Shown: positions 33,393 through 58,167 of the stretch, one piece after another | Position numbering within the stretch: position 1 is the stretch's first letter | Layout of the letters: the number at the start of each line of letters is the position of its first letter | Source: a virus | Lineage: Duplodnaviria; Caudoviricetes | DNA: 64,000 nt | Reading direction: 5' to 3' (one strand) | IMG/VR virus record: IMGVR_UViG_3300028327_000538 | Location: 1-64,000 of that record | Translations under genes and position numbers: made by a program | The notes under the pieces: generated by a model | Told to the model about the DNA's origin: nothing | Databases searched by the model: none | Seen by the model: the letters and a program-made list of their open reading frames with translations, nothing else

Positions 33393-33429
33393 ATATTAAT
33401 TTTAACACGCATTGATGTATAATATAGTT

Positions 33430-33871
33430 ATGCGCTATCCACAATCAAATCAGTTGCCTATACCTTTAACAGGGGGGGCTTCCAGAGGTCGATTGGGGCA
33501 GAAAGATAGTTTTTGGCAAATATATCCGAGGCGAGGCTGATAACGGATACTTTCCCAAAACATTTGCCGCAGATCAAAGCCGCTCTTGCCCCGTCTTCAA
33601 AGCCCCCGAAAACGGGCTGGTCATGTGTGTCTTCCACAACGACACAGTTAGTAGTTACATATCTTTTTCTTTTTATATAAACAGAGACAAAAACAATTTC
33701 GATTGGCGTGACCGCGTATGCGTCGCGCGCGCGGTTAAATCAGACTCCAAAAGCATATGGATACCAATCAACAAAGACGATGTGTTTAGCGTGGATATAT
33801 TTTCGTCCAACGCGATAACAGTGGACTGGCAACACGCCTTCGCTATGTTTTGGCCGTATAGGACAAGCTGA
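33430..33871 (+). pseudogene. Fibre-tip-like gene frameshifted at a G7 tract (candidate phase-OFF allele)
   Basis: MRYPQSNQLPIPLT-G7(33472-33478), then the +1 frame LPEVDW...DNGYFP...FKAPENGLV...IPINKDD...AFAMFWPYRTS*, homologous to 57613..58167; G6 or G9 restores the frame. Confidence 0.75.
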
Positions 33872-33874
33872 CAC

Positions 33875-33909
33875 CGCAAAAAATAAGGGCGTTTTGTTAT
33901 AAACACTAT
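33875..33909 (+). promoter_or_regulatory. Bipartite phage promoter-like motif, copy 2
   Basis: CGCAAA-N11-TTTTGTTATAAACACTAT. Confidence 0.65.
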
Positions 33910-33976
33910 TATTTTTAGCTATTGCTTGCAGGGGGGCAGTGCGGTAGAATATAAATACATATTAAAAGGAGAAAAT

Positions 33977-34813
33977 GTGATTACGAAGGTTGGAAATATT
34001 CTAAAAATTGCTGATATTTATCAGTTCAACACTAACTCTAGTGATGATTATTTAGAAGGTTATGATAGCTATGGCGGTAGAATATGGAAAAACAATAAAT
34101 ATCATAGCCCGAACTGGTCGCTACTTGCTAAAGAAGACCCAAGCGGCAAAGAATTAAATTTTGAACCGATTGAAAAATTCAAAAAAAACAAAAAAATATA
34201 TAACATGGCATCAAAATTAGTAAATGGCGCGTATTCGCCCTCATATTATGATCGCGTTCACGACGTGTATGCCATTAATTACGATGAGATTCCTCCTGGT
34301 GATACTCCTGTATTAATTAGGCCGTCTAATGATTCATCTAATGCTAAAAGTTCTGTGAAAGGAATAGTAAAAGGCGTTGCTCTAGGAGGGGTTAGCGGGG
34401 CAATTCTTGGCAGAGCGTTGTCCGGCAGTATTCGCGGCGCTGTTAGTGGCGCTGTTTCAGGTAGCATTCTTGGAGGAGGGATAGGCGCTCTCCACAAAAA
34501 AGCCAACGAGTTGTCCCGTAAAGAGCGCAGAGACGCTTTTGAGAGTAAAATATTAAATCCGCAAACGACTAAAGATTACGCAAGAACTTTTGGAATGTTC
34601 GGTGCAGGTATAGGTGCTGGGCAGTCACTCAAGAAGATAATTGAACACCGCAAAGAAATAGGCGAAATGACTCGACATTTACCAGGCGGAAGAAAGGCTG
34701 CTATTGTTGGTCTTGGTATCGACACCCTTGCAAATGCTGCGTTATTAGGCGGTATCGGTGCTGGTGTTGGCGCTGCTACCGGAACATTCATAAACAGAAA
34801 ACGTAAGACCTAA
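33977..34813 (+). CDS. Glycine-zipper cargo-like protein with (M)ITKVGNILKIA leader
   Basis: GTG 33977 after AAAGGAG; several GxxxG helices; HKKA. Confidence 0.7.
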   Translation: MITKVGNILKIADIYQFNTNSSDDYLEGYDSYGGRIWKNNKYHSPNWSLLAKEDPSGKELNFEPIEKFKKNKKIYNMASKLVNGAYSPSYYDRVHDVYAINYDEIPPGDTPVLIRPSNDSSNAKSSVKGIVKGVALGGVSGAILGRALSGSIRGAVSGAVSGSILGGGIGALHKKANELSRKERRDAFESKILNPQTTKDYARTFGMFGAGIGAGQSLKKIIEHRKEIGEMTRHLPGGRKAAIVGLGIDTLANAALLGGIGAGVGAATGTFINRKRKT

Positions 34814-34834
34814 TAATATTTTAAACAGTAAGGA

Positions 34835-36316
34835 TCATTGAGTTGGCAACTTTGCCGCTCTCTGTTCTAAAGCATCTAGCCTGACAACAAGACTTTTGAT
34901 TTCATCAATCTCTTTGTCTGCTATGCCGCTCCACAGTTTTGTGTGTTTATCCAAAATCATCCATTTGAGTGCAGGAACACCATTCCAAACAAGCCCCATC
35001 CAAGCTGGATAGTTGAGGGTAAGCGGGTTCCTGTTACTAGCGATAAACTTACCTGCGTTCACAGCAGCAAATGCGCCATATGCGATTGACAACATCACGC
35101 GAAAACGTGGGTTTAAGTTTAGTGGCAGAGTATCGTTCACTATGGTTTTACAAAAATCAGCATCATAAAAATATAGTTGCTTGGCGGCATATAGAACCCT
35201 CATAAGCACTTCCATAACGGTCACGGGAAAACTCATAGTTACAAAATGCCGAAAATCGTATCCATGAATATACATCCACTCAACTTGTGCGCCAAAAGTT
35301 GAATCGCTAACCGGAACAAATTCGACCATTCTTAGCAAAGACATAAATGGGACTGGTAGTCCCATGCCCCTATTACCCATTGCTGATGGAGCGTTCACAT
35401 CAGAAGCAAGATGTCCTAACATTAACCGCATTTGCGCCCAGGGTGAATTGTAGGGCATAGTTACCGCATCGCTCTTAAACCTCTGTAATTTACCATTATA
35501 CACTGCCGTAAGGGTATTGTTCTTCATATCCAACGGGCCGAATAAAAAGCCTAGTATCGGATCGTGTGAGAGGGCGCGAAGTCTGTGATTGGTGGGGCTA
35601 ACAACCTTACCCGGTGAACCAATTAGATTTTGACTAACTGATGTATCCGCCGATCCAATTTTGAAGCTGTTACTTAATTTGGCTGTCTTATCGGGAGGGA
35701 AGATTGCATTAAACATTTTTTGTGTTGCTTTGTTAAATGGGCCATTAACGGGCGTAGTAAACTTTGTTATGAAAGGCGTTGGCATACCAACGTAAAAAAA
35801 GTCCAATCCCCCGCCAATAATTCCGCATAAACCGGCTATAGCATAGTCATATACGTCCAAACCATAACGAGCATTAAAATCCTCGATAGACTTATCAATA
35901 CCTTGCTTGACAGCAGCAAGATCATCAATAGATAAAATGTCTTCTATCTTTACCTTATTAGGGTAACGTGCCTCAGCTTCAGCCAATATCTTTTCGGGTT
36001 CAATATAACATAACTGAATGCTTTGGCTCATTTCATCATATATTTTTTGTCTGCGTTCTTCTATTAATTTTGGCAATATATTTGTATTTTTGGTCAAGAC
36101 GGCTAATCGAGTCTTTAATTCTTTTATTTCTATGTCAATTTCATCATGAGATGACTCTATAGATTTTTGGCGCTCCTGTAGAAGTCGAATAGCCTTCATC
36201 GTTTTTTGGATTTCGGTATTATTCGACTTCTGTGACTTTTTGTTCTTTTGTTGTGCGTTACTTAAACTGCAACCACAAATTATAGATAGCGTTATGACGG
36301 TTATCAAAAACTTCAT
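34835..36316 (-). CDS. Putative lipoprotein/membrane protein with coiled coil
   Basis: MKFLITVITLSIICGC lipobox-like start; AT-rich moron; HRLRALSHDPILG. Confidence 0.6.
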   Translation of the reverse strand: MKFLITVITLSIICGCSLSNAQQKNKKSQKSNNTEIQKTMKAIRLLQERQKSIESSHDEIDIEIKELKTRLAVLTKNTNILPKLIEERRQKIYDEMSQSIQLCYIEPEKILAEAEARYPNKVKIEDILSIDDLAAVKQGIDKSIEDFNARYGLDVYDYAIAGLCGIIGGGLDFFYVGMPTPFITKFTTPVNGPFNKATQKMFNAIFPPDKTAKLSNSFKIGSADTSVSQNLIGSPGKVVSPTNHRLRALSHDPILGFLFGPLDMKNNTLTAVYNGKLQRFKSDAVTMPYNSPWAQMRLMLGHLASDVNAPSAMGNRGMGLPVPFMSLLRMVEFVPVSDSTFGAQVEWMYIHGYDFRHFVTMSFPVTVMEVLMRVLYAAKQLYFYDADFCKTIVNDTLPLNLNPRFRVMLSIAYGAFAAVNAGKFIASNRNPLTLNYPAWMGLVWNGVPALKWMILDKHTKLWSGIADKEIDEIKSLVVRLDALEQRAAKLPTQ

Positions 36317-36317
36317 A

Positions 36318-37280
36318 TTATTTTTGTGAAATCGCACGAGCTTCTAGCATAAATATTTGTCCTTTCAGGATAGCTATCTCATTTTTATAATATTCCGCAT
36401 TCGCAATTAAACGATCTTGTACGCTATACAACCGTGAAATCGCTACATTTAATGCGGCGGATAGTTTAGCCATTCTCTTCTTATCTTTGTAATAATCGTG
36501 CGCGATGTAAGCTCCACCTCCAAGAACAACAACTGGAATCACTACCACGCCCACGCCAGTTGCCATGCCACCACCAGCAATACTGCCAAGTGTCGCTAAC
36601 CCACTTGTAAGACCTGCGGCGGAAAGTCCATTGACCCCCGCAAACCATAACGCTGTATATGATATTGCTCCGCCTCCAACCAGCCCAGTAATTCCAGCTA
36701 AAGCGGTATCAAGACCAGGGGCAGACCTTTCGAGTTCTTGAAAAATAGCGAGAATCTTTTCGTTAGCCTCCTGAATTTCTGCCGAGACCTGTGCGCTATT
36801 TAGGGTGTCAGTCTTCCCTGATGCTAGAACCTGTAACCTAATCACTGCGGATGAGTTGCCATTCTTAGCCGCCATAGCATAGTATTTCGCTGCTTCTTGG
36901 CGATTTTTCCCTATCCCGTCCCCAAGATCGTACATCAAAGCCAATGAAAATTGTGCGGTCGGATGTCCTTTTTCAGCCGCTTTTTGATACCAGTAGGCAG
37001 CTTTTGGCTTGTTCTGTTGTGTCCCCTCGCCTTTCTCATACATAGCTCCAAGAGTGTACATTGCCATCAAATCGCCGTCTTCCGCGGCAAGCAAGCACTG
37101 TCCAAAGATTTCCTGTGGTGTGGGGTTGGGCGCTTCTTCTCCCTTTGAAGACTGTAGCTGTTCTTTAGTTTCTTTACTTTGTGCGCGAGAGCATCCCCAA
37201 TGACTACCAGCGCAACCAACACAAAGCAATAACGCGATTAGAGTTACAGAAACGCACGACTCAACTTTTCTTTTAGACAT
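36318..37280 (-). CDS. Exported Sel1-repeat protein with C-terminal Gly-rich membrane domain
   Basis: LLCVGC signal; AMYTLGAMYEKGEG..KAAYWYQKAAEKGH..AQFSLALMY; GGAGGAGAGG RBS. Confidence 0.8.
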   Translation of the reverse strand: MSKRKVESCVSVTLIALLLCVGCAGSHWGCSRAQSKETKEQLQSSKGEEAPNPTPQEIFGQCLLAAEDGDLMAMYTLGAMYEKGEGTQQNKPKAAYWYQKAAEKGHPTAQFSLALMYDLGDGIGKNRQEAAKYYAMAAKNGNSSAVIRLQVLASGKTDTLNSAQVSAEIQEANEKILAIFQELERSAPGLDTALAGITGLVGGGAISYTALWFAGVNGLSAAGLTSGLATLGSIAGGGMATGVGVVVIPVVVLGGGAYIAHDYYKDKKRMAKLSAALNVAISRLYSVQDRLIANAEYYKNEIAILKGQIFMLEARAISQK

Positions 37281-37293
37281 ACCTCTCCTCCTT

Positions 37294-37544
37294 ACCAAGA
37301 GACGTACATCCTACCAGAAATGCCTTATGTTTTCTCCCTGGATTGTTTCAGGGCGATCAGGATGGACGAGAGACCGGTCAGGAAAGCGGCGCCGTCGTCC
37401 AGCCATCCGACTACAGGAATGACATCCGGGATAAAGTCTACAGGAGAAACAATATATACCAGGCTGGCTATGGGGATTAAATATCTTGTGACGATTTTAC
37501 GCATGTCTCTCACCAAGAGACGTACATACTACCAGAAATGCCTT
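37294..37544 (-). repeat. 33-bp direct repeat (1 mismatch) flanking the DUF1232 gene; contains an extended -10
   Basis: ACCAAGAGACGTACAT(C/A)CTACCAGAAATGCCTT at 37294-37326 and 37512-37544; minus strand TGgTAG(G/T)AT. Confidence 0.85.
37325..37516 (-). CDS. DUF1232/YkvA family membrane protein
   Basis: YIVSPVDFIPDVIPVVGWLDD signature. Confidence 0.9.
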   Translation of the reverse strand: MVRDMRKIVTRYLIPIASLVYIVSPVDFIPDVIPVVGWLDDGAAFLTGLSSILIALKQSREKT

Positions 37545-37553
37545 GTATTTTCT

Positions 37554-37961
37554 TCACTTCTTTGTCACGAGAGACGCCATTATTGAGTCAATCCACGATT
37601 TAATACGATCTTCCGATTGTTTGAGCATGTCGAGTATTTCTTTTTGTGTTGGGATTTCTTTCATACGGTGTCCAATGCTTTCCAGTTTTGCCGTGAAAGC
37701 CCCGCGCATTTCCTTAATTTCAGAAATCGCTTCGTCGTGCGCTTTTAGCTTATCCCAAAGATCCTTGTTGCGCTTATCATCTCTCGCTTTTATTTCCAGT
37801 ATTTGCATCTCAAAGTGTTTCTTCTGCGCTTCAAGCTGAGACTCAAAGGATGCTTCCATTTTTTCCATAGCGCGTGAGTTAGAATTCCAAATATAGGCGG
37901 CAAATATGCCCAATAGACCAACCGCGCTGTTCATTATCCATTCGGTGTTAATCGTTGACAT
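37554..37961 (-). CDS. Single-TM coiled-coil protein of the lysis cassette
   Basis: N-terminal TM and coiled coil; follows the spanins. Confidence 0.5.
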   Translation of the reverse strand: MSTINTEWIMNSAVGLLGIFAAYIWNSNSRAMEKMEASFESQLEAQKKHFEMQILEIKARDDKRNKDLWDKLKAHDEAISEIKEMRGAFTAKLESIGHRMKEIPTQKEILDMLKQSEDRIKSWIDSIMASLVTKK

Positions 37962-38271
37962 TGTCTCTCCTTTGTTGTGTTTGTGTCTGGTTTAGATACG
38001 CCTTGAGACGTGTTTCCAGATCCAGCCCCCAGGCCGTAAGAAGTTCTCTGTCAGCGAGCAGTATCTTTGCGAGGTCTTGGATTGTGAGTTCTTTAAGGTC
38101 TTTGAGATTCGCGCTTGGCAGAAGCGGGCGCGGGGGTATGGTTGGTTCCGGTGCGGGGACGACTATGTATTCCCGGATTACCAGTGTTTCAGGCTTCGGC
38201 GCGGGAGGGCACGGTTTGACGCAACCGAGAACGCCAATAGCCAAACATATAATAGTTATCACGCTTTTCAT
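37948..38271 (-). CDS. o-spanin (Rz1-like lipoprotein)
   Basis: Lipobox VLGC, Pro-rich mature part, directly after the i-spanin. Confidence 0.7.
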   Translation of the reverse strand: MKSVITIICLAIGVLGCVKPCPPAPKPETLVIREYIVVPAPEPTIPPRPLLPSANLKDLKELTIQDLAKILLADRELLTAWGLDLETRLKAYLNQTQTQQRRDNVND

Positions 38272-38280
38272 ATCTATCCC

Positions 38281-38652
38281 CTAATTGGGCGCCAGACGAT
38301 TGACTACAACTTGAGCTTCGGCAACGGCCCAGGCTATAAACTCTTCCGCGTCGTCTGATACGGGCTTGTCTAAGATTGCCTGCGCGTGCAGTTCGCCTTT
38401 GACGCGATGCGTGGCGGCTATAACGGCGGCGTTTGAGATTGCTTCGGACTGCGATTTGGCGTCGGCTTTTATACTCTCTATCAGTTCGGCTTGAGGAACA
38501 ACGAGGCGGGCCAGTTGGTCTTTTTCGGCCTGTAGTTTCCCAATCTCGGAGTTTAGTCCGGCTATGGTTTTGTCCTGTTTGCTGGTGCGCCGTGCGCTCA
38601 CAACCACAATGGTTATGAGAATGACAATTAGAAGCAGCCATATTTTATTCAT
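38281..38652 (-). CDS. i-spanin (Rz-like)
   Basis: N-terminal TM anchor followed by a coiled coil. Confidence 0.65.
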   Translation of the reverse strand: MNKIWLLLIVILITIVVVSARRTSKQDKTIAGLNSEIGKLQAEKDQLARLVVPQAELIESIKADAKSQSEAISNAAVIAATHRVKGELHAQAILDKPVSDDAEEFIAWAVAEAQVVVNRLAPN

Positions 38653-38891
38653 TTTTTACCCGACTCTGCCAACATAGTAAGCATCCCATTGCATTGCGCT
38701 TTGTATATATCGCGTTCTTCTTTCAGATTTTCGTTTTCTCGCCGCAAACTTATGATTTGAAGCTCAAGCTGCTCTGCTCTTGCTTTTATCTCTTCGAGCG
38801 CCCGCGCTTTAACTAAAAGTTCGCAGACAAATCTGTTGTGTCTGTTACGAAACATCCAAAGGCTATCCATTATCCATCTCAAAAATTTCAT
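38649..38891 (-). CDS. Coiled-coil hypothetical protein
   Basis: Coupled within the lysis operon. Confidence 0.5.
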   Translation of the reverse strand: MKFLRWIMDSLWMFRNRHNRFVCELLVKARALEEIKARAEQLELQIISLRRENENLKEERDIYKAQCNGMLTMLAESGKK

Positions 38892-39256
38892 TGTTCTTTT
38901 GCCTCAGCAAAGTTACCTGCCGTAAGCATTCCAAAAGAGCCAATAATAATAAAAGTAGCAAAATCTCTAAGAGGGCCGTTTATTTCAAACCACAATCCCA
39001 AAATACACAATACAGCCCCCAAAAGAAAAGCGAAGAAAGCAATCATCCGCTTAGTGCTTGGAGCGTTTGGACGTTCACAAAGTCCTCTTAAAACAAATGG
39101 AATAATACCAGGGGGCAAAGAGGGCCATTCTTCTTTAGAGTGAGCCTCCTCTTCTTCTTTAATAATTTCCTTTGGAGGATTATTTAAGGCGTCCTCCAAA
39201 GGCGGAAGAAAGGCGAAATCATCCCCTTCCGTTTTCTTTTTATCCTGGCGTTTCAT
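38888..39256 (-). CDS. Putative holin (2 TM)
   Basis: PSTKRMIAFFAFLLG...two TMDs; first gene of the spanin operon; leaderless promoter. Confidence 0.55.
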   Translation of the reverse strand: MKRQDKKKTEGDDFAFLPPLEDALNNPPKEIIKEEEEAHSKEEWPSLPPGIIPFVLRGLCERPNAPSTKRMIAFFAFLLGAVLCILGLWFEINGPLRDFATFIIIGSFGMLTAGNFAEAKEQ

Positions 39257-39282
39257 ATGGTTTATTATAGCACGGCTATACC

Positions 39283-39317
39283 CGCAAAAACACTGGATAT
39301 TTTGTTATAAACATTAT
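39283..39317 (+). promoter_or_regulatory. Bipartite phage promoter-like motif, copy 3
   Basis: CGCAAA-N11-TTTTGTTATAAACATTAT, then GGGAA..TTCCC hairpin and TAAGGAGG RBS. Confidence 0.7.
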
Positions 39318-39356
39318 GAGGGAATAATAACTTTCCCCATTTTATAAGGAGGTTTT

Positions 39357-39707
39357 ATGCAAAAATCCAATAACGAACTGGTTCACGAGATTGTCCACGA
39401 ATTTGAACAATCCTGCGATAACCTGAATCGCGCTATTGATTTCGCGTTGACGTCGTTTGCCGAGAAGCTCGACGAAATGCACATTGACAGCAATGATGTG
39501 CAGGAAATCAAAAACATTCTGTCCACCCAGACAAGCGCGCTCCTGAAAATCGTCAAACTCGGCGACTACAGCAACGTGCCGGACAGAGAGGAACTGATTG
39601 CGCTGACGACGGAAGCAAAGGGTCTGGCGACATCGTTCAAAGACATGACGCGCTTATGCCGAATCGGCATGAAAGCCCTGGTTCACTTCGTCAAAACGCA
39701 GTTCTGA
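39357..39707 (+). CDS. Monocistronic helical early-like protein
   Basis: Perfect RBS; own promoter motif and terminator. Confidence 0.7.
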   Translation: MQKSNNELVHEIVHEFEQSCDNLNRAIDFALTSFAEKLDEMHIDSNDVQEIKNILSTQTSALLKIVKLGDYSNVPDREELIALTTEAKGLATSFKDMTRLCRIGMKALVHFVKTQF

Positions 39708-39717
39708 AGCAAAACAA

Positions 39718-39745
39718 AGGCCGCCAACATTGGCGGCCTGTTCTG
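39718..39745 (+). terminator. Hairpin terminator
   Basis: AGGCCGCCAA-ca-TTGGCGGCCT followed by GTTCTGTT. Confidence 0.65.
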
Positions 39746-39765
39746 TTGTTCCTAAGAGATTTTGA

Positions 39766-39867
39766 CTATTTGAAGATACTACGGAAGAAGCGCACTGCCT
39801 CTTCGTCTTCGGGTGTTCTTACCACGAAGAAAAGTATTATGCTTCCTACTATTTCGACTATTCCCAT
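39766..39867 (-). CDS. 33-aa hydrophobic peptide, copy 2
   Basis: MGIVEIVGSIILFFVVRTPEDEEAVRFFRSIFK*; GGAG RBS. Confidence 0.7.
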   Translation of the reverse strand: MGIVEIVGSIILFFVVRTPEDEEAVRFFRSIFK

Positions 39868-40149
39868 TTGAGGCTCCACAAAAACAATGGTTGGGAAAGG
39901 ATTTAGCAGCAACTAACTGTAAGTTGCCGCCAAGTATGTAACGGTATATATCTCTTCAGAGTGTTCTTGTCTGTTCCTTCTATTAGTTTTATCTTGTTTC
40001 CTGCGCGACCACAGCCTCTACGGGCTGTCGCTTTACCGGGTCGTCGTTGTCAGCCACGTTACCTCCTGTAAAAAACACATGGTAACAACAATATAGAAAG
40101 GGGGAAGCCCCTTTCTTTTAGCTATAATTAAAACAGAAAGGAAAACTAT

Positions 40150-40635
40150 ATGTTAAGCAACTTGATTGTTATATTACTGATTGTTGGGGCGGCGTCACTT
40201 TTTTATTGGAATGTCGCGCAACCGGTTCTGTTGCGCCCCCATGTCTATCGTTTATCATCTCTACGTGACAGTCTACGTTGGGAGATGATTGAAGGCCGAC
40301 TTGACATAGACGACAAAAACGCCGCGACCCTAAGCCGCATTATTGAAGCAATCACAGCCAATGCTCAAACGATGAGCATATTGCATTTCTTTTGGTTCCG
40401 CTTCGTAAACCGCAATAGGGAGATGCCCGATAATATTAAGCGATACTGCCGCGATGCGCCCGATACAATCAAAAAGCTGAATCGTATCGCAATGGAGACA
40501 TCTATCGCTATTATGTTGATCAACGCTCCTGTGTTCAGCGTAATCTTTTCGACAGCGCTGTTGCGAAAGCGGCTAAAGGCTCTGGGCACTGCTGATGACT
40601 TTGTTGTGCTCTTTAATAATCCAGGAGTTGTTTAG
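40150..40635 (+). CDS. Membrane hypothetical protein
   Basis: N-terminal TM; AAAGGA RBS. Confidence 0.6.
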   Translation: MLSNLIVILLIVGAASLFYWNVAQPVLLRPHVYRLSSLRDSLRWEMIEGRLDIDDKNAATLSRIIEAITANAQTMSILHFFWFRFVNRNREMPDNIKRYCRDAPDTIKKLNRIAMETSIAIMLINAPVFSVIFSTALLRKRLKALGTADDFVVLFNNPGVV

Positions 40636-44200: not shown

Positions 44201-44232
44201 GATTTACCTCTATTATAAGAATAGCCTAACAA

Positions 44233-45027: not shown

Positions 45028-45058
45028 ATAACCCATTTTAACACAAAGGAGTGAAACG

Positions 45059-49131: not shown

Positions 49132-50430
49132 ATGAAAATCATTAATTTACAAGCCGAGAATTTTAAGAGAATCCAGGCTGTTGATATTACACCAAAGGAC
49201 AATTTGGTCGTGCTGAGCGGCGCGAATGAACAAGGAAAATCAAGTGTTTTAGACGCGATTATGGCCGCTATTTCGGGCGGACGCGGAATAAGGGATATTT
49301 CGGAGCCTATCCGTAAAGGGCAGGAACGCGCCGAAGTCAAACTCGACCTGGGCGATTTAAAAATCAGGCGTGTCTGGCAGGATGGCAAAACACCGCGAAT
49401 AGAGGTTACAAGCGCCGATGGGAAGAAGTATCCAAGTCCACAGGCCATGCTTGACACCTTAACAGGCACGCTGACATTTGACCCGCTGGAATTTGCGCGG
49501 ATGCCGCCCAGGGAGCAACGAGCGACACTCCTGCGGCTTGTTGAATTACCTTTTGATCCCGATGAAAACGACGCAGAGCGCACCGTGCTTGTACAAAAGG
49601 AGACGGCGGCGAAACAGGAAGCGAAGCGCCTGGATCAAAGCGTATCCGCGTTGACGCAAGTGCCAATCGACACGCCGGACGAGGAAATCTCCGCGGCGGA
49701 AATCTACGAGGAGCTGACAAAGGCGCAGGCGGTTGTGGATGAGAATAAGCGTAAGAGATCGGAACTTGAAGAAGCCAAGAACGCATACCGCCAAGCCAAC
49801 GAGGGCATAAAAGATATAAAGCGGCACATAGACGAGCTAAAAAAAGAACTTGAAAATATGGAAGCCGCCCTTGTAAGCAAACGCGAAATCGGGGAGAGAT
49901 TAAAAACCGAGGTTGACGCGCTCATCGACCCCGATACTTCCGAGCTTAAAGCGAAATTGGCATCACTGGACAAAATCAATCGCAACGTCCGGCAAAAGCA
50001 ATCAAACGAACAGACTCTTGAGAATTACAAAGCGGCACAGATTCTCGAAACAGCCGCAAAGAAAGCTGTGGCCGCCCACGACAAAGCCCGCGCCAAAGCT
50101 CTCGCTGAAGCCAAGTTCCCTGTCGATGGGTTAGCGTTCTCCCAGGACGGCGTAACTCTCAACGACCTGCCATTCGCGCAAGCCTCCGAAAGCCAGCGGA
50201 TTATGACTTCCGCGGCGATGGGCATGGCTATGAACCCGGAATTAAAGGTCATGTTTATACGTGACGGCTCAATGCTGGACAGCAAACGAATGGAAGCATT
50301 GTCAAAGATGGCCGAAGAACACGAGTTTCAGATTTGGATCGAGCGTGTGGATGAGTCCGGTGCCGTAGGAATCGTCATCGAGGACGGATTGATACAGGAG
50401 AAAAAACATGCAAGTAGAAGCCTTGATTAA
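49132..50430 (+). CDS. SMC/Rad50-like ABC ATPase
   Basis: GANEQGKSS Walker A, long coiled coil, ASESQR signature, FIRDGSMLD; ATG 49132 after GGAGG. Confidence 0.85.
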   Translation: MKIINLQAENFKRIQAVDITPKDNLVVLSGANEQGKSSVLDAIMAAISGGRGIRDISEPIRKGQERAEVKLDLGDLKIRRVWQDGKTPRIEVTSADGKKYPSPQAMLDTLTGTLTFDPLEFARMPPREQRATLLRLVELPFDPDENDAERTVLVQKETAAKQEAKRLDQSVSALTQVPIDTPDEEISAAEIYEELTKAQAVVDENKRKRSELEEAKNAYRQANEGIKDIKRHIDELKKELENMEAALVSKREIGERLKTEVDALIDPDTSELKAKLASLDKINRNVRQKQSNEQTLENYKAAQILETAAKKAVAAHDKARAKALAEAKFPVDGLAFSQDGVTLNDLPFAQASESQRIMTSAAMGMAMNPELKVMFIRDGSMLDSKRMEALSKMAEEHEFQIWIERVDESGAVGIVIEDGLIQEKKHASRSLD

Positions 50431-50986
50431 CAGTCTGAAGAACACGGACAACCCTACAAGAACAATTGAGATCATCCCTGAAACATTCAAAAAAAGCAGC
50501 GTAGGACTTTACAACGGAAGAAAATACACGGCCTTGTTTAACCCTTTCAACGGCTGTGTGTATTTGGATGACTTGTATGGCGATATAGAAAGAATTACAG
50601 AAGCGGAAGCAGAAGTAGAGCGAACATGCAATCTGAACATAACCAAATCGGTAGTGCTTTGGATTGATCCGTCATCAAACAATGCCTGGGACAGTATTTA
50701 CTGGAACGAGTTCGATACTGTCACTGAAGCGTTGGATTATTTCAAATCGTTAAACCTGGTTTTTTACAGCGACGGATTAGACCGGAAAGATTATATCTAT
50801 CTGGTTTCAATTAACGAAAGAATACCTGGCTCCAAATGGTTCAGGCGAGTTCTGGAAACCCATGACGGAGAAAGGTGGAAAATGGGCAAGCCTGACATAA
50901 AAATTGACAGCTATGGATTGCCAAAAATCACGAGGAGCTTAATTGAACACTTCCAAAGGAGGGGGAATGAGTATCGAAGCCTTTGA
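50408..50986 (+). CDS. Hypothetical phage protein
   Basis: AGGAG RBS; ALFNPFNG..YLDDLYG. Confidence 0.6.
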   Translation: MQVEALINSLKNTDNPTRTIEIIPETFKKSSVGLYNGRKYTALFNPFNGCVYLDDLYGDIERITEAEAEVERTCNLNITKSVVLWIDPSSNNAWDSIYWNEFDTVTEALDYFKSLNLVFYSDGLDRKDYIYLVSINERIPGSKWFRRVLETHDGERWKMGKPDIKIDSYGLPKITRSLIEHFQRRGNEYRSL

Positions 50987-51128
50987 AGAATTGGTCTGCT
51001 CAGACGATATAACATTTTGCCCGATATGCGGTATGCCAAACGAACCAATAGACCAATTGGGGCGTCTGACACATTTTTGTTGCCAAGCCTGTGGCATGTG
51101 GTACAGCCACGACGCAAGGGAGGACTAA

Positions 51129-51479
51129 TTGAAAACACCTGAAGAAATTGAAAGCGCACTAAACCAAATGAACGGAACCGAGTGCTATTATTTGTACACA
51201 AAAGGATTTAAATTAACGGACGGAGTGAAGCTGATGGCCGAACTAACCGGAGGCTTTTGGCTGCTTGATGTAATTATCAGTTACCAGGGAAATGAGAAGC
51301 GCCTTGACCCGGATTTTCAGGTCTGGACTTTGAAAGTTGATGGAGACAAAGCAATAGTCTATGGGAAAAACGATATTGAAAACGTAGTGGTTCAGGAAAT
51401 AGAATACACCGATTTCCCGTTAAAAGAAATCACTGTCTGGGTTGAGGGCGACGTGCTGTTGTTGCCGTCGGAGCGCTGA
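51129..51479 (+). CDS. DUF6876-like protein
   Basis: GTECYY..LTDGVK...WLLD..S.Q...FQVW.L...QEIEYTDFPL...LLLPSE. Confidence 0.75.
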   Translation: MKTPEEIESALNQMNGTECYYLYTKGFKLTDGVKLMAELTGGFWLLDVIISYQGNEKRLDPDFQVWTLKVDGDKAIVYGKNDIENVVVQEIEYTDFPLKEITVWVEGDVLLLPSER

Positions 51480-51487
51480 TAAGGAGG

Positions 51488-52009
51488 TTGCCCATGATTA
51501 TTGTAAATCCAATTATGGGATTAAAATGCCCTTTGTGTAATAGCCCAACACGATTGGTGATGGAAAAGGATGATCGGGGCAACTGGTTTCGTGTTGAATG
51601 CTCTAATTGCAACTGTTCTTCTAATCGCAGGATCGAACTTGATTATAAAGCGATAGAGACTTTTAAAAATGGGGCTTTTGGAAGAAGAGTTGTTCATCCC
51701 TGCGGACATGTCAGATGTTGGGATAACGAACCATACGAAAAACAAATTGCCCATGAAGATCCACAATTAAAAATGTGTCCTGATTGCGAAAGAGAATCTG
51801 CTAAAGCAGAAAGAAAACGAAAATTGAAAATATTTCGGTCTTCCCGCAAACGGCTCATTAATCAATTCGGAACCGACGCAGAAACGGATGTTTTTCTTAA
51901 AGACTGTGGAAGTGTAATCTATTTTTGCTACAGAGCAGGTCCCGATCGAGAACTAATGGAAGTCAGCCGCGAGTTTTACGACGCGTGGGTAAAGGAATTC
52001 GGCAATTGA
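51488..52009 (+). CDS. Zn-ribbon (Lar-like N-terminus) protein
   Basis: LKCPLCNS...VECSNC; AAGGAGG RBS. Confidence 0.55.
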   Translation: MPMIIVNPIMGLKCPLCNSPTRLVMEKDDRGNWFRVECSNCNCSSNRRIELDYKAIETFKNGAFGRRVVHPCGHVRCWDNEPYEKQIAHEDPQLKMCPDCERESAKAERKRKLKIFRSSRKRLINQFGTDAETDVFLKDCGSVIYFCYRAGPDRELMEVSREFYDAWVKEFGN

Positions 52010-52542
52010 ACGACGAAGTAGTGTACATGCGATTGCCGCCGGAACTATTAAAGGAGTTGAGAAATGCAGGTGTCTCTTATACTGGAGAACCCACGAATCC
52101 CAATGGGGAATCTGTGTAGAAGATTTGACAAAGAGCAGGGGCACGTAATCAGCGAATGTCAGTTCTTATATCGCCCCGGCCCAGAAATATGGTGTTGGCT
52201 TTTTGATGCGAGGCTCGGCTATAGCTACAGTAGCTCAGACAAGCGGATCAAGAAATGCCCCAAGTGCTTGGAGCGCACACAAGACTTCAACGTTACAAAA
52301 GTGAGCAAAAAACACGATGTGCCCGACAACAATTCGTGCAGAGAGTTCAACGAAGAAACGGGTGAAGAAATCAGTTCCTGTCGGTACATATTAAACGAAA
52401 GTATCAAAAGGTGCTACTTCTTCAGAGAGCGCCTGGAAGATGGAAACCGCATAAACGACACAGTAAAGTGCAAAAGCTGTGCAGCCAGTTTAAAAGCGGC
52501 AAAAACAGAAAGCGAAGTAATTATTTTTACTGAGGAAGGCAT

Positions 52543-52908
52543 ATGCTCTTAAAAATTACGGAAGAAGAACGGGATATACTCATATCCCTATTGCAGAACA
52601 CGCCTCACAAAGAACTGCTGGAGAACGTATCCAGGGCTGAAGAAACCAACTGGAAAAAACTGGGCGAGATAACCCTGGAAGTTGACAACCATTATTTCGT
52701 TTGGCCTAAAGACGCAAGAGACGCAATCGAGGCTATTTACTGTGCGGAAGATGAATTTCTGGGGGAGCCAACAGAACCATACTTCTGCGGATGTGGTTAC
52801 TACCAGGACGTACATTATGACATGGACGAAGTGGAATATGTAGCTGAAACAGATGGCATATGTGAATCTCCTACAAGAACACCTGAAGAACAAGGACTAG
52901 GCGAATGA
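52543..52908 (+). CDS. Acidic hypothetical protein
   Basis: In operon with overlapping neighbours. Confidence 0.55.
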   Translation: MLLKITEEERDILISLLQNTPHKELLENVSRAEETNWKKLGEITLEVDNHYFVWPKDARDAIEAIYCAEDEFLGEPTEPYFCGCGYYQDVHYDMDEVEYVAETDGICESPTRTPEEQGLGE

Positions 52909-53339
52909 CTACAAAATCACGCCCTGTAAAATACATGCCTCAACACCCCTGGCTTGACAGCATCTTCTTTAACAGACTGTTGCAAGCGCTGGAGAGAGCG
53001 TTTAGCCAAAATACGGAGATACTACCCGAATATGACAAAATCGCCATAACAGATCTCAACTTTCCCTACCACTGGCTCAGAGAAACTGACCGAGCAATTA
53101 GCTTGGTGGTTGACGTTATGTGCGCGAGAGAATCAGAAATTTTCTTCGTAGAGGTAACTGAAAATGGGGATTTCCTTGTGCGAAGTATAGGCCCAAGAAC
53201 AAACCCCTACCGCAATAGAAGCAAGCTGAAACCAATCCACACACATATGAAAAACGAAGAATTTCCCGATAATATAGACTGGTCCGCTCGTAACCACCCA
53301 TGGAACCACTACCTGACAAAAGAGCCTTTGAATGGCTAA
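52905..53339 (+). CDS. Hypothetical protein
   Basis: ATGA overlap with the previous gene. Confidence 0.55.
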   Translation: MTTKSRPVKYMPQHPWLDSIFFNRLLQALERAFSQNTEILPEYDKIAITDLNFPYHWLRETDRAISLVVDVMCARESEIFFVEVTENGDFLVRSIGPRTNPYRNRSKLKPIHTHMKNEEFPDNIDWSARNHPWNHYLTKEPLNG

Positions 53340-53462
53340 AGGACAAAATCTGCGCTGGAAGCTGTTTAAGTTCTGTCGAATACTCTTCAATATATTACTT
53401 ATTGTTGCGATAATATATTTTGCCAAGGACTTTTGGCGCTTGTTTTTGCGCTGGGTATCCTC

Positions 53463-53687
53463 ATGAGTTTCAAATCAATCAAGCTCGCCCTCAAAATATA
53501 TTGGAAAGAAACTTTCGGAGATACAACGCCCACATTTGTCTTTTCATGGGCAATAGGGGCTATAGCTCTTACCGCTATAGCCATTTATTTGATTATAAAA
53601 TACGGCCATCCCTGGGATTACATTTTTGGAGGTATGGCTCTGTTGGGCATGGTATGTGGGACAATTCTTGCTAAGAAAGGTTACTGA
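53463..53687 (+). CDS. Small two-TM membrane protein (paralog of 24372..24581)
   Basis: KSIKLALKIYWKETFGD...YGHPWDYI. Confidence 0.7.
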   Translation: MSFKSIKLALKIYWKETFGDTTPTFVFSWAIGAIALTAIAIYLIIKYGHPWDYIFGGMALLGMVCGTILAKKGY

Positions 53688-54039
53688 TATTTTGACCAGA
53701 TAGCCTGGATATTCTTTTACGCTTTCTTCTTTGCCTTTCGGCTTCAGCATAGCCATCTAAAATGTCATTGCTGGGAATTGTCGCAACTGACACTGGAACC
53801 CCGGTTTTAACCGCATTCGCAATGGTAAATCCGGTTCCAAGCAACCCACTGGTCAAAATTATGGTTTTGCCTAAACCGGCCTTTCGTCTTTTCTCTTCCG
53901 CCAACTTCTCAAAATATCGCTCCACCAGCATCCGCCGGTAGTTCTCCTGTCTGTACCGCTCAACCATGTGTTGAGCGGCCAGCGTGAGGCGGTGTCTTTC
54001 TTCTGGACTGAGATCGGCAAGTCTGCGATGGTTATTCAT
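53671..54039 (-). CDS. K-x-A protein with basic patch and hydrophobic helix (paralog of 24578..24922)
   Basis: RLADLSPEER...VERY...FEKLAEEKRRK. Confidence 0.7.
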   Translation of the reverse strand: MNNHRRLADLSPEERHRLTLAAQHMVERYRQENYRRMLVERYFEKLAEEKRRKAGLGKTIILTSGLLGTGFTIANAVKTGVPVSVATIPSNDILDGYAEAERQRRKRKRISRLSGQNISNLS

Positions 54040-54385
54040 TTTTAGCTATCATCTCTTGCTCACACAAAGAATCGTAAGGGCACTCAAAGTTGCTATCCTC
54101 GTTCAGCGGGCATTGCGGGTCAAGCCGACATTCTTTACGCGCCGCCTCTTTGAGACGCTCCATGAACTGCTCGCTGCTAATAATATGGATGCCTTTGTGT
54201 ATCTGGTATAGCTCAGGGCACACCGGCCCGTTCGACCATGCCTGGAAGTCTTCCTGAAACAGCGGCTTCTCGTCCCAGACCAACGACCATGCCTGGGCGT
54301 AGTAGCAGAGCTTTTGCAGCTTCCAGACGCTCATCGGGCCGAGCTTGTCCAAAAAATACTTCGCTACATGGAATATAGTCGCCAT
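54032..54385 (-). CDS. Panacea-domain (DUF4065) antitoxin with atypical Cys-rich C-terminus
   Basis: VAKYFL...KLQKLCYYAQAW...PLFQEDFQAWSNGPVCPELY. Confidence 0.85.
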   Translation of the reverse strand: MATIFHVAKYFLDKLGPMSVWKLQKLCYYAQAWSLVWDEKPLFQEDFQAWSNGPVCPELYQIHKGIHIISSEQFMERLKEAARKECRLDPQCPLNEDSNFECPYDSLCEQEMIAKNE

Positions 54386-54388
54386 ATA

Positions 54389-56032
54389 TCACCAGTTCAG
54401 TTTCTTAAACTGTATGTCTTCCGGGTTAATAAAGTAGCGGCATGTACGATATGTGGCGCTCAGACCCTCGACGGGTATGGGATATATCTGTCTGGTTGAC
54501 AGGTAGGTGATTGTCGAACCGTCGATATTATCCATGTGCAGGACGGCATATGTGGGGATGCCGCTCTTGCCCTCGCATGTCTCAGTGATTACGCCGTTGT
54601 CGGCGAGTTTGTATGGCAGGTTGTTTCGGTCTTCCCATGTTTCCTCAAACTTGACGGGGACGCCGATTCCATCAAAGAGTTCGTTGAAGCGCAGGTTTGT
54701 CGGTGACGACCATGTGTTTATGCGATTGGCTAGAATTGCTGTCCAGGCTTCTTCATCAAGGCTGCCCTCATACACCACGACGAGCTTTTTAACCTGAACA
54801 GGGATGAAGGATTTGAAGAGCAGGTCGCAGTTCAGCAGGCGCGAGGAGTTTGCCGATTCCTGAATATTCTCCATGTTTGAGTATGTTTTGTATGACAGCG
54901 TGACGGTATTGTCGGTTGCGCGTTCAGTGGTTCTGACGCTGATCCGCAGACGCTCATAGATTGAATACCTGTAGTTCTTGCCCCAGGCTATGTCGGGGAG
55001 TATCTCTACTGAATAGTCAACGTCGCCGTTGGGCTTTTTGGCGAGCTTGCTGTAATCAAGGCCGCCTATGGACGACTTTTCCCAATCAATCAGCACGATT
55101 GGCGTCACCGGGATATTGCCCTCGCACAAGCGCCAGCTACACACGGTGCCGTTGTAATTAATGCCGCTGTATCTGGCAAAATCGAAAGAATAGACGTTGC
55201 CGCCTTTGTCGGTAATGTTGTTTGTCGTAAACTCGGCGTCAACCAGGGGGCTTTTGATGTAGGCGTCTATCCGGCTACCGATGTGCCCCGACCAGCCCCG
55301 CGAGGCCACTGAGATGTCGCGCTGCATTTCGGGGTCTCCGAAGCCGACGGCGAGTATGTCAAAGATGTCGTAGGCACTCTTGTAATTGGCGATTATTGAG
55401 GCGGAATTGACGTCGTTCCTGGTTGAAAGACTGTTTTGAATGGTGGTGAAATACTCTTCGTTGGTTTCGGCTGCGATGGGAGCGGACGAGGCGTTTTCGT
55501 TTCTGACAAAGGCCAGCCCGTTTGCGATGACGCTCGTTTGTGTAACCGCTCCGGCGGGGACGACCCCTGAGCCGTCAAACTTAACAGTAATCTTGGCGGC
55601 ACGATATTCCGCTCCGTCTATGGTCACTTTCGGCATTGAACCGTAAACAAGAATATACTCGCGCAACGGATACCCGACTGCGTTTGAGCTTGTCCGAAAC
55701 GTGTCGGTTGTATTGACGACAATAGGCTCCGCGTTGCCGGACTTAAAGTACATCGAAACCTCAACAGTAACGCTGTTCGCCGTGCGTCTCGGCGGAGCCA
55801 TCAGCATTTTGCCGATGTTGTCCAGTTGTTCCTCGCCGAGCTGACTCGGATCTGAAAACAGCAGGTATCGCTGAATCCACTCCACGACATCCCAGGTGGC
55901 CTTGCTCAGCATGGCGAATGGAAGCACAGACAGGTTGAACGTGGCTGAATTGGGCGAGAGGTCAACATTGGCGAATCTCTCATCGTCCTTGAGCGTGTTT
56001 ACGGCAAATGTAATGGCATCCTCAAATCTCAT
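54389..56032 (-). CDS. Baseplate J-like wedge protein
   Basis: EEQLDNIG, ETNEEY..IQNSLS.R, VGFGDPEMQRD, HIGSRIDAY; follows a gp25-like gene; ATG 56032. Confidence 0.7.
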   Translation of the reverse strand: MRFEDAITFAVNTLKDDERFANVDLSPNSATFNLSVLPFAMLSKATWDVVEWIQRYLLFSDPSQLGEEQLDNIGKMLMAPPRRTANSVTVEVSMYFKSGNAEPIVVNTTDTFRTSSNAVGYPLREYILVYGSMPKVTIDGAEYRAAKITVKFDGSGVVPAGAVTQTSVIANGLAFVRNENASSAPIAAETNEEYFTTIQNSLSTRNDVNSASIIANYKSAYDIFDILAVGFGDPEMQRDISVASRGWSGHIGSRIDAYIKSPLVDAEFTTNNITDKGGNVYSFDFARYSGINYNGTVCSWRLCEGNIPVTPIVLIDWEKSSIGGLDYSKLAKKPNGDVDYSVEILPDIAWGKNYRYSIYERLRISVRTTERATDNTVTLSYKTYSNMENIQESANSSRLLNCDLLFKSFIPVQVKKLVVVYEGSLDEEAWTAILANRINTWSSPTNLRFNELFDGIGVPVKFEETWEDRNNLPYKLADNGVITETCEGKSGIPTYAVLHMDNIDGSTITYLSTRQIYPIPVEGLSATYRTCRYFINPEDIQFKKLNW

Positions 56033-56417
56033 TTGAATCTCCCAGGGGCAGCTTGATATAGCGCACGCCATAGTCAGTCTTAACCGAAATGTTCACGGTT
56101 GCGCGTTTGGACGCGACATTGAAATCAACGGCGCCCAGGACGACATCCTGCAGGTCTGGATGGCTGCCCTTTATCTGCTCGGCAATCATGGACAGGCGGC
56201 TGGACATCTCAACCGAAAACTGCGACTTGTCGCCATAGGTCGTGAGGTCTTCAACGTCGCCACCAAAGAAGCGGCCCCACTCAAAATTTCTGGTGTTTGA
56301 CAGAATGGCGACACAGAGCTGCTGAAGCAGCAGTTCAAAGCCGCTGACTTCTTCGCCAGTCCAGCCAAAGGTGATAAAGCCGTCGTCGGCGATTTTGATA
56401 ATTTTCAGGTCAATCAA
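56022..56417 (-). CDS. gp25/GPW-like baseplate wedge protein
   Basis: VSGFELLLQQL..ILS...FGG; 131 aa directly upstream of the J-like gene. Confidence 0.6.
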   Translation of the reverse strand: MIDLKIIKIADDGFITFGWTGEEVSGFELLLQQLCVAILSNTRNFEWGRFFGGDVEDLTTYGDKSQFSVEMSSRLSMIAEQIKGSHPDLQDVVLGAVDFNVASKRATVNISVKTDYGVRYIKLPLGDSNEI

Positions 56418-56856
56418 ATCCGGTCTCCAACAATTTGGCTAACTCCGCTACCTTGATCAAAAGATTGTTCTTATTCAACTGCGGCGCCAGGCTGTCCTTG
56501 TGCTCGTCCACTTCTTCGGCCCTTCGTAACAGGCTTTCGAGAAACGCTTTGTTGTCTTGCAGGTCTATCTTTGTCGAGACTGTGTAATCAAGGAAATAGT
56601 CGCCGGGCTGTTTGTTGATTTCAGCGATGGTGCGGTTATAGCCTATCTGATCCCAGATGGACGCGGCTATTTCCGTGAGCTGTCCGATGCTGCTGGCGTT
56701 CACAAAGAAATTGGACAGAGCGGAAAAGTCTGTTTTTTCTTCCGGCGTGTTGGGGACGTTGGGAGTTCCCTTCTGGGCTTCCAGTGTGTTCTCGTTCTGC
56801 TCAATGTCCTGGCTGATAAAACTCTGTTCTTCGAGGCTCTTGGTCAGGGGCATCAA
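56410..56856 (-). CDS. Hypothetical tail-region protein
   Basis: Coupled in the baseplate operon. Confidence 0.55.
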   Translation of the reverse strand: MMPLTKSLEEQSFISQDIEQNENTLEAQKGTPNVPNTPEEKTDFSALSNFFVNASSIGQLTEIAASIWDQIGYNRTIAEINKQPGDYFLDYTVSTKIDLQDNKAFLESLLRRAEEVDEHKDSLAPQLNKNNLLIKVAELAKLLETGFD

Positions 56857-57230
56857 AGCACCATGTTTACTGACAGGGAAACGTCGTCAACAGTGTCGCG
56901 CAAGAGTTCCAGTTGATTTTGTATCTGCAACTGAATCGCGTCGCCCCAGAGCTTTGCCTTATATATCACGGCCTCGATGGGCAGGCGGGAGTCGGCAAAG
57001 TGCCCCTCGATTTTTCCGCGCTCAAATAATGCTATATCCGGCCCGGCGTTATGATAGAATGGCGGATACTTTGAATCGTGCGGATCACCAAACATGCCGC
57101 TTACACGAATTTTAATATCTCCGAACTTTTGCAGTTTCGCGTCGTCATCAAGACCTTTCTGAGCCACACGAAAAGTCACGACAACAACACCGTCGTTTAT
57201 TGTTTGAGAACGCTGTATAATTGTGGACAT
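56853..57230 (-). CDS. Hypothetical tail-region protein
   Basis: First gene of the baseplate operon; TGcTATAAT upstream; ATG 57230. Confidence 0.55.
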   Translation of the reverse strand: MSTIIQRSQTINDGVVVVTFRVAQKGLDDDAKLQKFGDIKIRVSGMFGDPHDSKYPPFYHNAGPDIALFERGKIEGHFADSRLPIEAVIYKAKLWGDAIQLQIQNQLELLRDTVDDVSLSVNMVL

Positions 57231-57287
57231 ATTAGCCTCAAACAATTATAGCATAATATCCAACACTCTTATACTAAAGGAGAATCA

Positions 57288-57620
57288 ATGATCCCATCAT
57301 CCATGACAACACCAATATTATTGTTCGCTCATTGTGTATGCGACTTTTCGTTGCAAACAGAATGGATGGCTAAAAACAAAAAAGAACCTAACATTATAGG
57401 ATCCATCGCTCTTATAGCTCATTGTTTCATTTGGGCCGGGGGGATCTCGCTGGCGCTAATCTATCTGAATATGTTTGAGCCTTGGAAATGGTACATGCTT
57501 TACATTGGACATTGGTTAATTGACGCATGGAAAGTGAACCAAACTTCTATTGAGCCAAAGAAGTCATTTGCGATAGATCAGGCGCTGCACGTATTGCAGT
57601 TGTCGATTTGTCTTACATAG
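57288..57620 (+). CDS. DUF3307 membrane protein
   Basis: AHCVCDFSLQT.WMAKNK...AH...HWLID.WK...DQALH. Confidence 0.85.
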   Translation: MIPSSMTTPILLFAHCVCDFSLQTEWMAKNKKEPNIIGSIALIAHCFIWAGGISLALIYLNMFEPWKWYMLYIGHWLIDAWKVNQTSIEPKKSFAIDQALHVLQLSICLT

Positions 57621-58167
57621 TCTTTTTGTAGGGTTGAAATGTAGCCCAGGCTTCGTAGAACTTAAATGTTTGGGTTGCGTCCGTCCAGATGCGACAAGTA
57701 ATTTCTTCGCCCTTATTGACCGGCACTAGTGTCATCTGCCACTTGTTTTGAATCATTGTTCCTAAACCATTAACTAGAGTGTTATTGGAAACATCGCCAG
57801 TCCATATCCAAAGATTCATGGCGTTAATGTTAGTCCCTTGATCTGCATACCACCAAACTCTGACTATGCCATTATCCGGCGCTGTATATGCTGAGCCGGT
57901 TACGGTAGCATTTTTAACCAGGCTCGATGGGAAGAAACCGTTATTCGTGTTGTCGGATCTGCGTTGTCTTCCGATCCATTCAGTCTTGTCTCGATCCAGA
58001 CTCCCGTCAATCCCGCCTTTGGGAACCGCGAAATTCAGGTAATACCCGTCGTCTCTTGTTTCAACTGTTACGTCCGCCGGCTCTCCCGCTCCCAATGTCG
58101 TCACGTTTCCTATCTTAATAGGGGGGGGGGGGCTGCCAGGTAATTGATTGGACTGAGGGTATCTCAT
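57613..58167 (-). CDS. Short fibre/receptor-binding-like protein with an in-frame C12 tract
   Basis: MRYPQSNQLP, C12 (plus-strand G12 at 58121-58132), IGNVTTL..GEPA.V...LNFAVPKG fibre knob, YTAPDNG...VPVNKGE tip domain. Confidence 0.7.
   Translation of the reverse strand: MRYPQSNQLPGSPPPPIKIGNVTTLGAGEPADVTVETRDDGYYLNFAVPKGGIDGSLDRDKTEWIGRQRRSDNTNNGFFPSSLVKNATVTGSAYTAPDNGIVRVWWYADQGTNINAMNLWIWTGDVSNNTLVNGLGTMIQNKWQMTLVPVNKGEEITCRIWTDATQTFKFYEAWATFQPYKKTM

Follow-up and report, generated by a model that had tools for sequence, protein, structure and literature searches.

Does an uncultured large phage choose which host-binding proteins it displays by gaining or losing single bases in homopolymer runs? 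The question is raised by two genes, here called A and B, in the 96,165-bp IMG/VR virus record IMGVR_UViG_3300028327_000538 (58% complete according to CheckV), positions 1 to 64,000 of which formed the window analyzed here; positions in the remainder of the record are given below as genome positions. Both genes encode small proteins that open with the same decapeptide, MRYPQSNQLP, and carry a G or C run close behind it, as a sequence-only reading of the window had correctly noticed. That reading proposed a phase-variable pair of fiber tips, one on and one off. Our analyses lead to a modified account, to which we give about even credence, in which the proteins would be alternative fiber tips mounted through the shared decapeptide, with B, and perhaps A, gated by slippage at the run.

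Gene B carries most of the argument. It is in frame, in agreement with the earlier reading, and encodes 184 aa. Its coding sequence begins with MRYPQSNQLPGS, after which the C12 run supplies four prolines, and the protein is laid out as decapeptide, Gly-Ser-Pro4 linker, three-stranded beta module (residues 17 to 49), and jelly-roll domain (residues 53 to 184). When the length of the run was varied in silico, the full-length protein was obtained at C9, C12, and C15, and all other lengths gave products of 16 to 19 aa. Out of frame, translation ends 1 to 4 codons past the run, because TAA and TAG sit in the two wrong frames within TATTAAGATAG. Any out-of-frame length leaves exactly one open reading frame (ORF), which encodes 163 aa, starts at a GTG codon, and lacks the decapeptide. 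Where B has GSPPPP, the orthologue P0006 has TP and the paralog P0002 has LT; the run in B is therefore an expansion within the linker. A misjoin of poly-G read tails at this position was ruled out, since the flanks on both sides are in frame and collinear with homologues.

The rarity of such runs was evaluated using 100 first-order Markov simulations of the genome. Ten G/C runs of at least 7 nt were observed (4.95 ± 2.2 in the simulations), and runs of at least 10 nt arose 0.05 times per simulated genome; the 12-mer is thus exceptional, whereas a 7-mer alone is not. Nor are the runs a product of codon usage: CCC accounts for 26% of the proline codons in this phage, yet three occur in a row in B, and GGG accounts for 17% of the glycine codons. 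Six other G7 or C7 runs lie inside long ORFs, and none of them breaks the frame. The assembly therefore does not generally miscount 7-mers, and an assembly error is not the default reading for the shorter run in A.

A second assembly suggests that the run in B varies in length. Protein P0001, from a separate JGI contig of 2,492 bp, is exactly the 163-aa GTG-start form of B, and the 184-aa form is on record from the 96-kb contig only. JGI/IMG protein records retain the literal V or L at GTG and TTG starts and ENA records put M, and because of this convention the same gene of this phage can be represented by two sequences in the JGI and ENA records. P0001, being a JGI protein, therefore reads as a complete call from the GTG codon; on the 96-kb contig, the same pipeline called the start of B at the ATG. 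An out-of-frame run in the 2,492-bp assembly would explain this most simply; that the smaller contig happens to end within 3 nt of the GTG is a priori much less probable. Window genes from 7939 to 56417 are also present on an ENA contig with a length of 58,124 bp, which would stop inside the C12 run if its left end is the same, and ENA is not among the listed sources of either form of B. Together, P0001 and the ENA contig end point to instability at the run, although true heterogeneity and homopolymer sequencing trouble are not separable from these two records; we infer that run length really differs between populations. Searches of IMG/VR with protein B and with the exact flanks of both runs, in which near-identical records were outside the search, found nothing, and an IMG/VR search with P0006 also found nothing.

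Gene A begins with MRYPQSNQLPIPLT, followed directly by its G7 run, which is out of frame. Translation at each length confirmed the earlier statement that G6 would give 146 aa; G9 gives 147 aa, and all other lengths give 25 to 37 aa. From position 33479, the +1 frame encodes a 130-aa jelly-roll domain. The 131 open codons behind the run have a chance probability of 7.5e-4, and the model of this C-terminal part has a predicted local distance difference test (pLDDT) score of 84 and a predicted template modeling score of 0.76. Judging from the open frame, the family motifs still present in it, and the confidently predicted fold, the break is young or reversible. No protein of at least 71 aa resembling the A domain, and no intact 146-aa form, was found on record. 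The ENA contig does cover the gene neighboring A, so A is seemingly off in every available assembly. Because the on-length of the run is just six, a modest switching rate would be expected, and an off state of a slow switch and a fresh pseudogene appear about equally probable. The phase variation originally proposed for both genes thus fares differently at the two loci. Switching at B is well supported in principle by a nonrandom C12 run, stops in both wrong frames, and an off-type ORF in a second assembly; the case for switching at A is weak.

A search of the record for further genes of the MRYPQSNQLP type, which the sequence-only reading had called for, revealed three, at genome 68519 (179 aa), 69055 (132 aa), and 69469 (127 aa). 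These genes stand in tandem outside the window (genome 68519 to 69852), and all lack G/C runs. When B was searched against its own genome, the out-of-frame part of A was matched with an E value of 3e-6, and the three further members were also matched. The C-terminal domains of A and B share invariant residues in two alignments (A1 and A2) and are, as had been claimed, alignable though divergent. The family therefore has five members of 127 to 184 aa, with a common layout: a near-invariant N-terminal decapeptide, a short variable linker, and a divergent jelly-roll domain. B and the gene at 68519 are long forms, with an extra small beta module that resembles one in families annotated as minor tail proteins. 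The two-gene switch pair first proposed stands insofar as A and B both carry runs; with three run-free members in the family, it needs to be corrected to a bank of tips with two gated members rather than a simple toggle between A and B.

The decapeptide is conserved as a peptide. In pairwise comparisons of the five genes, codon differences within it comprised 34 synonymous and 8 nonsynonymous changes; between A and B, seven of nine codons differ, with seven synonymous and zero nonsynonymous differences. Outside the decapeptide, the proteins are merely 20 to 50% identical. Since the differences are mostly synonymous and the remainder of the protein is divergent, the constraint lies on the peptide and not on a DNA site. 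Two of the genes, those at 69055 and 69469, occupy internal positions in an operon; one of them has a stop-start overlap and the other a Shine-Dalgarno-like sequence, and the decapeptide is therefore not a feature of leaderless initiation. Its simplest reading, judged from these sequence patterns, is a common docking or assembly tag. The 30 nt shared by A and B were also considered as an inverted repeat or recombination site, which was ruled out by the seven synonymous codon differences and by the separate promoter of each gene. A degenerate DNA pattern of the decapeptide gave three matches in IMG/VR, all judged to be due to chance.

One mosaic contig from the metagenome scan bears on the tandem cluster. 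Contig L010 (Ga0268262_10001330) is about 83% identical, over positions 449 to 1000, across the junction between the genes at 68519 and 69055. Its first gene (68519-like) is reduced to the last 43 codons, and its second (69055-like) is fused C-terminally to unrelated sequence. The junction marks a scar that recombination left in a relative's tip cluster; the contig has no runs and carries nothing on A or B.

The nature of the family was addressed by profile and structure searches. A profile search of 1.84 billion representatives returned 18 proteins only. The closest foreign relative of B is P0006, a 179-aa protein of another phage, which starts with MRQPQPNQLP. Other relatives are larger: P0007 (545 aa) has the domain in two copies followed by collagen repeats, and P0014 (1606 aa) has a BppL_N anchor. 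In P0016, the domain lies next to a BclA_C-like region with a subthreshold match to BclA_C. The single-chain AlphaFold model of B (pLDDT 80) comprises the three-stranded beta module and an eight-stranded sandwich. Its structural matches included Ena pilins (Z 9.3), XepA (Z 8.2), a TNF-like lectin (Z 7.9), BclA_C (Z 7.8), and a Bdellovibrio fiber tip (Z 7.6), with TNF ligands, C1q, and YomS also among the matches. The model of A falls in the same fold class, with XepA as its best match (Z 10.2; root mean square deviation of 2.9 over 108 residues). The models of A and B both fit a compact jelly-roll beta sandwich of 8 to 10 strands, with matches at Z 7 to 10 to BclA_C, C1q, TNF ligands, Ena, and XepA.

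A viral fold library returned C1q-like, minor tail, and receptor-binding proteins at E values of 1e-8 to 1e-4, and a segment spanning the beta module (residues 12 to 55) of B, P0002, and P0006 gave weak but repeated matches to minor-tail PHROGs (E values of 8e-5 to 9e-3), which for B covered residues 12 to 51. On the predicted structures, the family domain is a jelly-roll of the TNF/C1q/BclA/XepA fold class, and the family was previously unnamed. That its members are small fiber-tip or binding-head proteins seems probable from these models and relatives. The positions of the features of both loci are collected in Table 1.

Table 1. Features of the A and B loci and of the neighboring RNA polymerase gene, in window coordinates
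Feature	Position	Strand	Description
RNA polymerase gene	27468-33392	-	Single 1974-aa protein with both Rpb2 (beta) and Rpb1 (beta') domains
-10-like TATAAT of A	33418..33423	+	6 nt before ATG; no -35, no Shine-Dalgarno; opposite the divergent promoter of the RNA polymerase gene
Gene A (short form, frameshifted)	33430..33871	+	ATG frame ends after 36 aa
G7 run of gene A	33472..33478	+	Codons 15-17; out of frame; at the low end of the length range
Gene B (long form, in frame)	57613..58167	-	184 aa; ATG at 58167
AGGA then GTG	58102..58111	-	Just past the run; GTG at 58104 is the start of the 163-aa ORF
C12 run of gene B	58121..58132	- (G12 on +)	Codons 12-16 (Ser-Pro4), within the first 50 nt; longest G/C run of the 96-kb record
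Putative sigma-70-like promoter of B	58175..58209	-	TTGACA (58209-58204), 18-nt spacer, TATGAT (58185-58180), overlapping TAAAAT (58180-58175)

Under the account that we favor, the family proteins would be alternatives to one another as distal tips or binding heads of a virion fiber, all attached to one partner by the common decapeptide. Replication slippage would add or remove one base in the C12 run of B, and translation would then end 1 to 4 codons later. In this off state, only the 163-aa ORF without the decapeptide would remain open, behind its GTG codon with an AGGA of its own. The run of A (G7; G6 when on) occupies the place equivalent to that in B, with an undecayed domain behind it, and the gene, off here, would be either a slower switch caught in its off position or a pseudogene of very recent origin. 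Mixed progeny, differing in the gated tips displayed, would result. A bolder version strikes us as improbable. In it, five tips share one socket by way of the 10-residue peptide, and two are gated independently to give up to four virion types per burst. The off state of B would then perhaps not be a null, since the AGGA-GTG arrangement might yield a 163-aa form without the docking peptide; the run would toggle B between a virion-anchored and a free form, for example, a soluble decoy or a receptor blocker.

Several observations weigh against gated tips. Of the five paralogs, three carry no run. The one in A is short and derives from ordinary glycine codons (the G7 is homologous to GGT GGG, Gly-Gly, in paralog E), so that A could equally be a fresh pseudogene. 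P0001 may come from a low-coverage assembly with a miscalled 12-mer; the coincidence of the 58,124-bp ENA contig end with the run holds only if that contig shares its left end with the JGI contig, and the ENA assembly may stem from the same reads. A Pfam search with the five proteins at E values up to 10 found no family, aside from one chance-level match (E 0.099), and thus no C1q (PF00386), BclA_C (PF18573), or BppL_N (PF18338), and a sequence search of the Protein Data Bank matched no solved structure. The structural Z values are middling, the sandwich fold is very common, and the protein that best matches the model of A, XepA, belongs to a prophage lytic cassette and not to a fiber. None of the neighboring genes tested was recognizable as a baseplate or fiber-shaft gene, and comparison of the neighboring large proteins (560, 915, 762, and 734 aa), as docking partner or shaft, with PHROG, Pfam, and Protein Data Bank sequences gave nothing usable.

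The alternative that survives best is that the runs are incidental and that no adaptive switching takes place. The C12 run would then be a tolerated, slippage-expanded poly-proline linker, and A would be a pseudogene formed by a one-base insertion at a Gly-Gly codon pair, in a family whose five members are redundant. The three run-free paralogs and the origin of the A run in GGT GGG-type codons fit this explanation, as does a genome-wide number of G/C runs of at least 7 nt that is just about twice the expectation. In addition, repeats of at least 6 bases are widespread in phage genomes and under-represented in coliphage tail-fiber genes (bioRxiv 10.1101/2025.10.21.683753), which also tells against gated tips as such. 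However, a 12-mer expected at most 0.05 times per genome lies in the first 50 nt of a gene with stops in both wrong frames, and both runs are found at the same place, directly behind the decapeptide, in two members of one family. The domain of A is undecayed (with the improbably long open frame and pLDDT of 84 noted above), and P0001 points to an off variant of B. We consider incidental runs unlikely, although they have the best claim among the alternatives.

Next comes the possibility that the proteins are not fiber tips at all and instead serve in capsid decoration or as secreted, lysis-associated proteins like XepA and YomS of PBSX, with the decapeptide as some other sorting or assembly tag; the switches could operate in this case, too. 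XepA is the best structural match of A, and both XepA and YomS match B. The block that separates B from the tandem cluster includes a gene for an M23 peptidase, and no fiber shaft or baseplate gene was recognized among the neighbors tested. However, relatives at the sequence level are embedded in collagen-bearing and BppL_N-bearing fiber proteins, the beta module of the long forms matches minor-tail PHROGs, and the viral fold library gives C1q-like tail and receptor-binding proteins. A function away from the fiber therefore appears doubtful.

A sequencing or assembly artifact would mean that the true run in A is G6, that both genes are on, and that the odd calls of B elsewhere are homopolymer read errors. 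Homopolymer frameshifts are a classic assembly error, and at the 12-mer the assemblies seem either to break or to differ. On the other hand, the six other 7-mers in long ORFs are read without a frame break, no assembly on record has an intact 146-aa A even though the ENA contig covers the neighboring gene, and the run in B keeps the frame between two conserved flanks; we regard an artifact as quite improbable. Scarcely credible is recoding, in which full-length A would be made from G7 either through a +1 shift of the ribosome or because the phage RNA polymerase slips while transcribing the G run. In its favor, an unusual single-chain polymerase of this kind is encoded directly beside A, and GGG GGG G would let Gly-tRNA re-pair in the +1 frame. 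Against it, the 82 nt 3' of the run are less stably folded than most shuffled versions (fold-energy z of +1.25) and thus hold nothing to stimulate frameshifting; the next zero-frame codon is GCT, which is not a stop and which nothing in the sequence marks as slow; B has a longer run in frame and needs no recoding; and the known sites of transcriptional slippage are long A or T runs.

The gated-tip account also involves how A and B are expressed. The earlier proposal that both genes have leaderless promoters is plausible, though not proven. For B, the TTGACA-N18-TATGAT promoter has 11 of 12 matches and no Shine-Dalgarno sequence, its -10 element ends 12 nt before the ATG, and the predicted leader of the transcript is 0 to 6 nt. 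The proposal is less complete for A, which has the TATAAT hexamer and lacks a -35 element. A and the RNA polymerase gene form a divergent pair with 37 nt between the ATG of the latter (33392, minus strand) and that of A, and the RNA polymerase ATG is preceded by TAAAAT-N6-ATG, an arrangement like those at A and B. TATAAT-like hexamers 6 to 7 nt before an ATG recur at window positions 17134, 18920, 23793, 33392, 39256, and 45027 and at genome 74977 (all on the minus strand). These head real genes, including those for the terminase and the RNA polymerase, often with TG directly before the hexamer. Seven occurrences at this spacing compare with about 1.2 per offset elsewhere. Their recurrence at a fixed spacing makes leaderless or near-leaderless starts a plausible habit of this phage and suggests many leaderless transcripts.

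The phage itself is an uncultured large tailed phage with a fused beta-beta' RNA polymerase of its own, and a search of the phage collection found neither near-identical nor related phage DNA. Nothing resembling B in sequence turned up among the other phage windows of the same survey. Some further features of the record lie outside the window. The minus strand at genome 72989-73546, 3 kb downstream of the three tandem tip genes, encodes a SieB-like superinfection-exclusion protein (Pfam E value of 3e-11). An element of about 50 nt is repeated in two inverted copies, at genome 75125-75170 (plus strand) and 77500-77560 (minus strand), corresponding to L008:11125-11170 and L008:13500-13560. Each copy immediately precedes an ORF, one near 75.1 kb and the other near 77.5 kb. 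The element is noncoding and CU-rich/G-rich, with a CCTCC-rich arm, CTCATCACCGT, followed by AGGAGGTGGTGGGGGGGTGG, and it looks like a hairpin that might mask a Shine-Dalgarno sequence. It contains two of the G7 runs of the genome, which are unrelated to the tip family. The longest homopolymers of the record are two A19 runs, 30 nt apart, at genome 80148-80166 and 80196-80214 (L009:148-166 and 196-214), where there is no ORF of at least 60 aa.

If the runs at A and B do vary, slippage switching of host-binding proteins, which to our knowledge has been shown experimentally only for Campylobacter phages, would extend to an unrelated lineage of uncultured large phages with their own RNA polymerase. 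The analysis also flags two positions at which assemblies of such phages will disagree, and the compact 10-residue tag together with the unnamed jelly-roll family is a candidate modular docking system.

The closest known system is that of Campylobacter Fletchervirus phages, in which slippage of hypermutable poly-G tracts switches receptor-binding-protein genes (Sorensen et al. 2021, Cell Rep 35:109214, as cited in PMC10579305 and PMC10877375); the precedent invoked by the sequence-only reading is thus supported by these citing papers. As the system is described there, the likeness is that a lytic-type phage has a G/C homopolymer within the coding sequence of a gene with a probable role in host binding, and that a one-base change there would turn the protein on or off and give mixed progeny. 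Unlike the Fletchervirus phages, the phage studied here belongs to an unrelated lineage (its terminase is 26% identical to those of the nearest cultured phages). The family here comprises five genes for very small proteins, its runs lie in a linker directly behind the shared start of 10 residues, and the variation in run length is putative.

A second parallel is found in the contingency loci of phages T2 and T4, where repeats of at least 6 bases mutate reversibly by polymerase slippage and create bet-hedging heterogeneity, at an average of about 3e-4 per read for such repeats in T2 (Gomez, Barrick and Waters, bioRxiv 10.1101/2025.10.21.683753). In gene A, the G6/G7 run fits this class of repeats. 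However, the T2 and T4 loci are mostly in nonstructural genes such as agt and rIIA, whereas here fiber-tip-like genes would be gated, and one run is 12 bases long. In bacteria, homopolymers at the 5' ends of genes are documented as a gene-inactivation device (PMC2831843).

In architecture, the family resembles the BppL type of lactococcal phage TP901-1 and the C1q- or BclA_C-like tips of collagen fibers, which are likewise small and join a short attachment segment at the N-terminus to a jelly-roll head at the C-terminus. Its remote homologues bear BppL_N, collagen repeats, or BclA_C-like domains. In contrast to those types, the proteins of the window match none of the corresponding Pfam models and have an anchor of just 10 residues. 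The mechanism as such is therefore already known; particular to this phage are the very short shared tag, the bank of five genes with two candidate gated members, the unnamed jelly-roll family, and the little-studied, RNA-polymerase-encoding lineage in which they occur.

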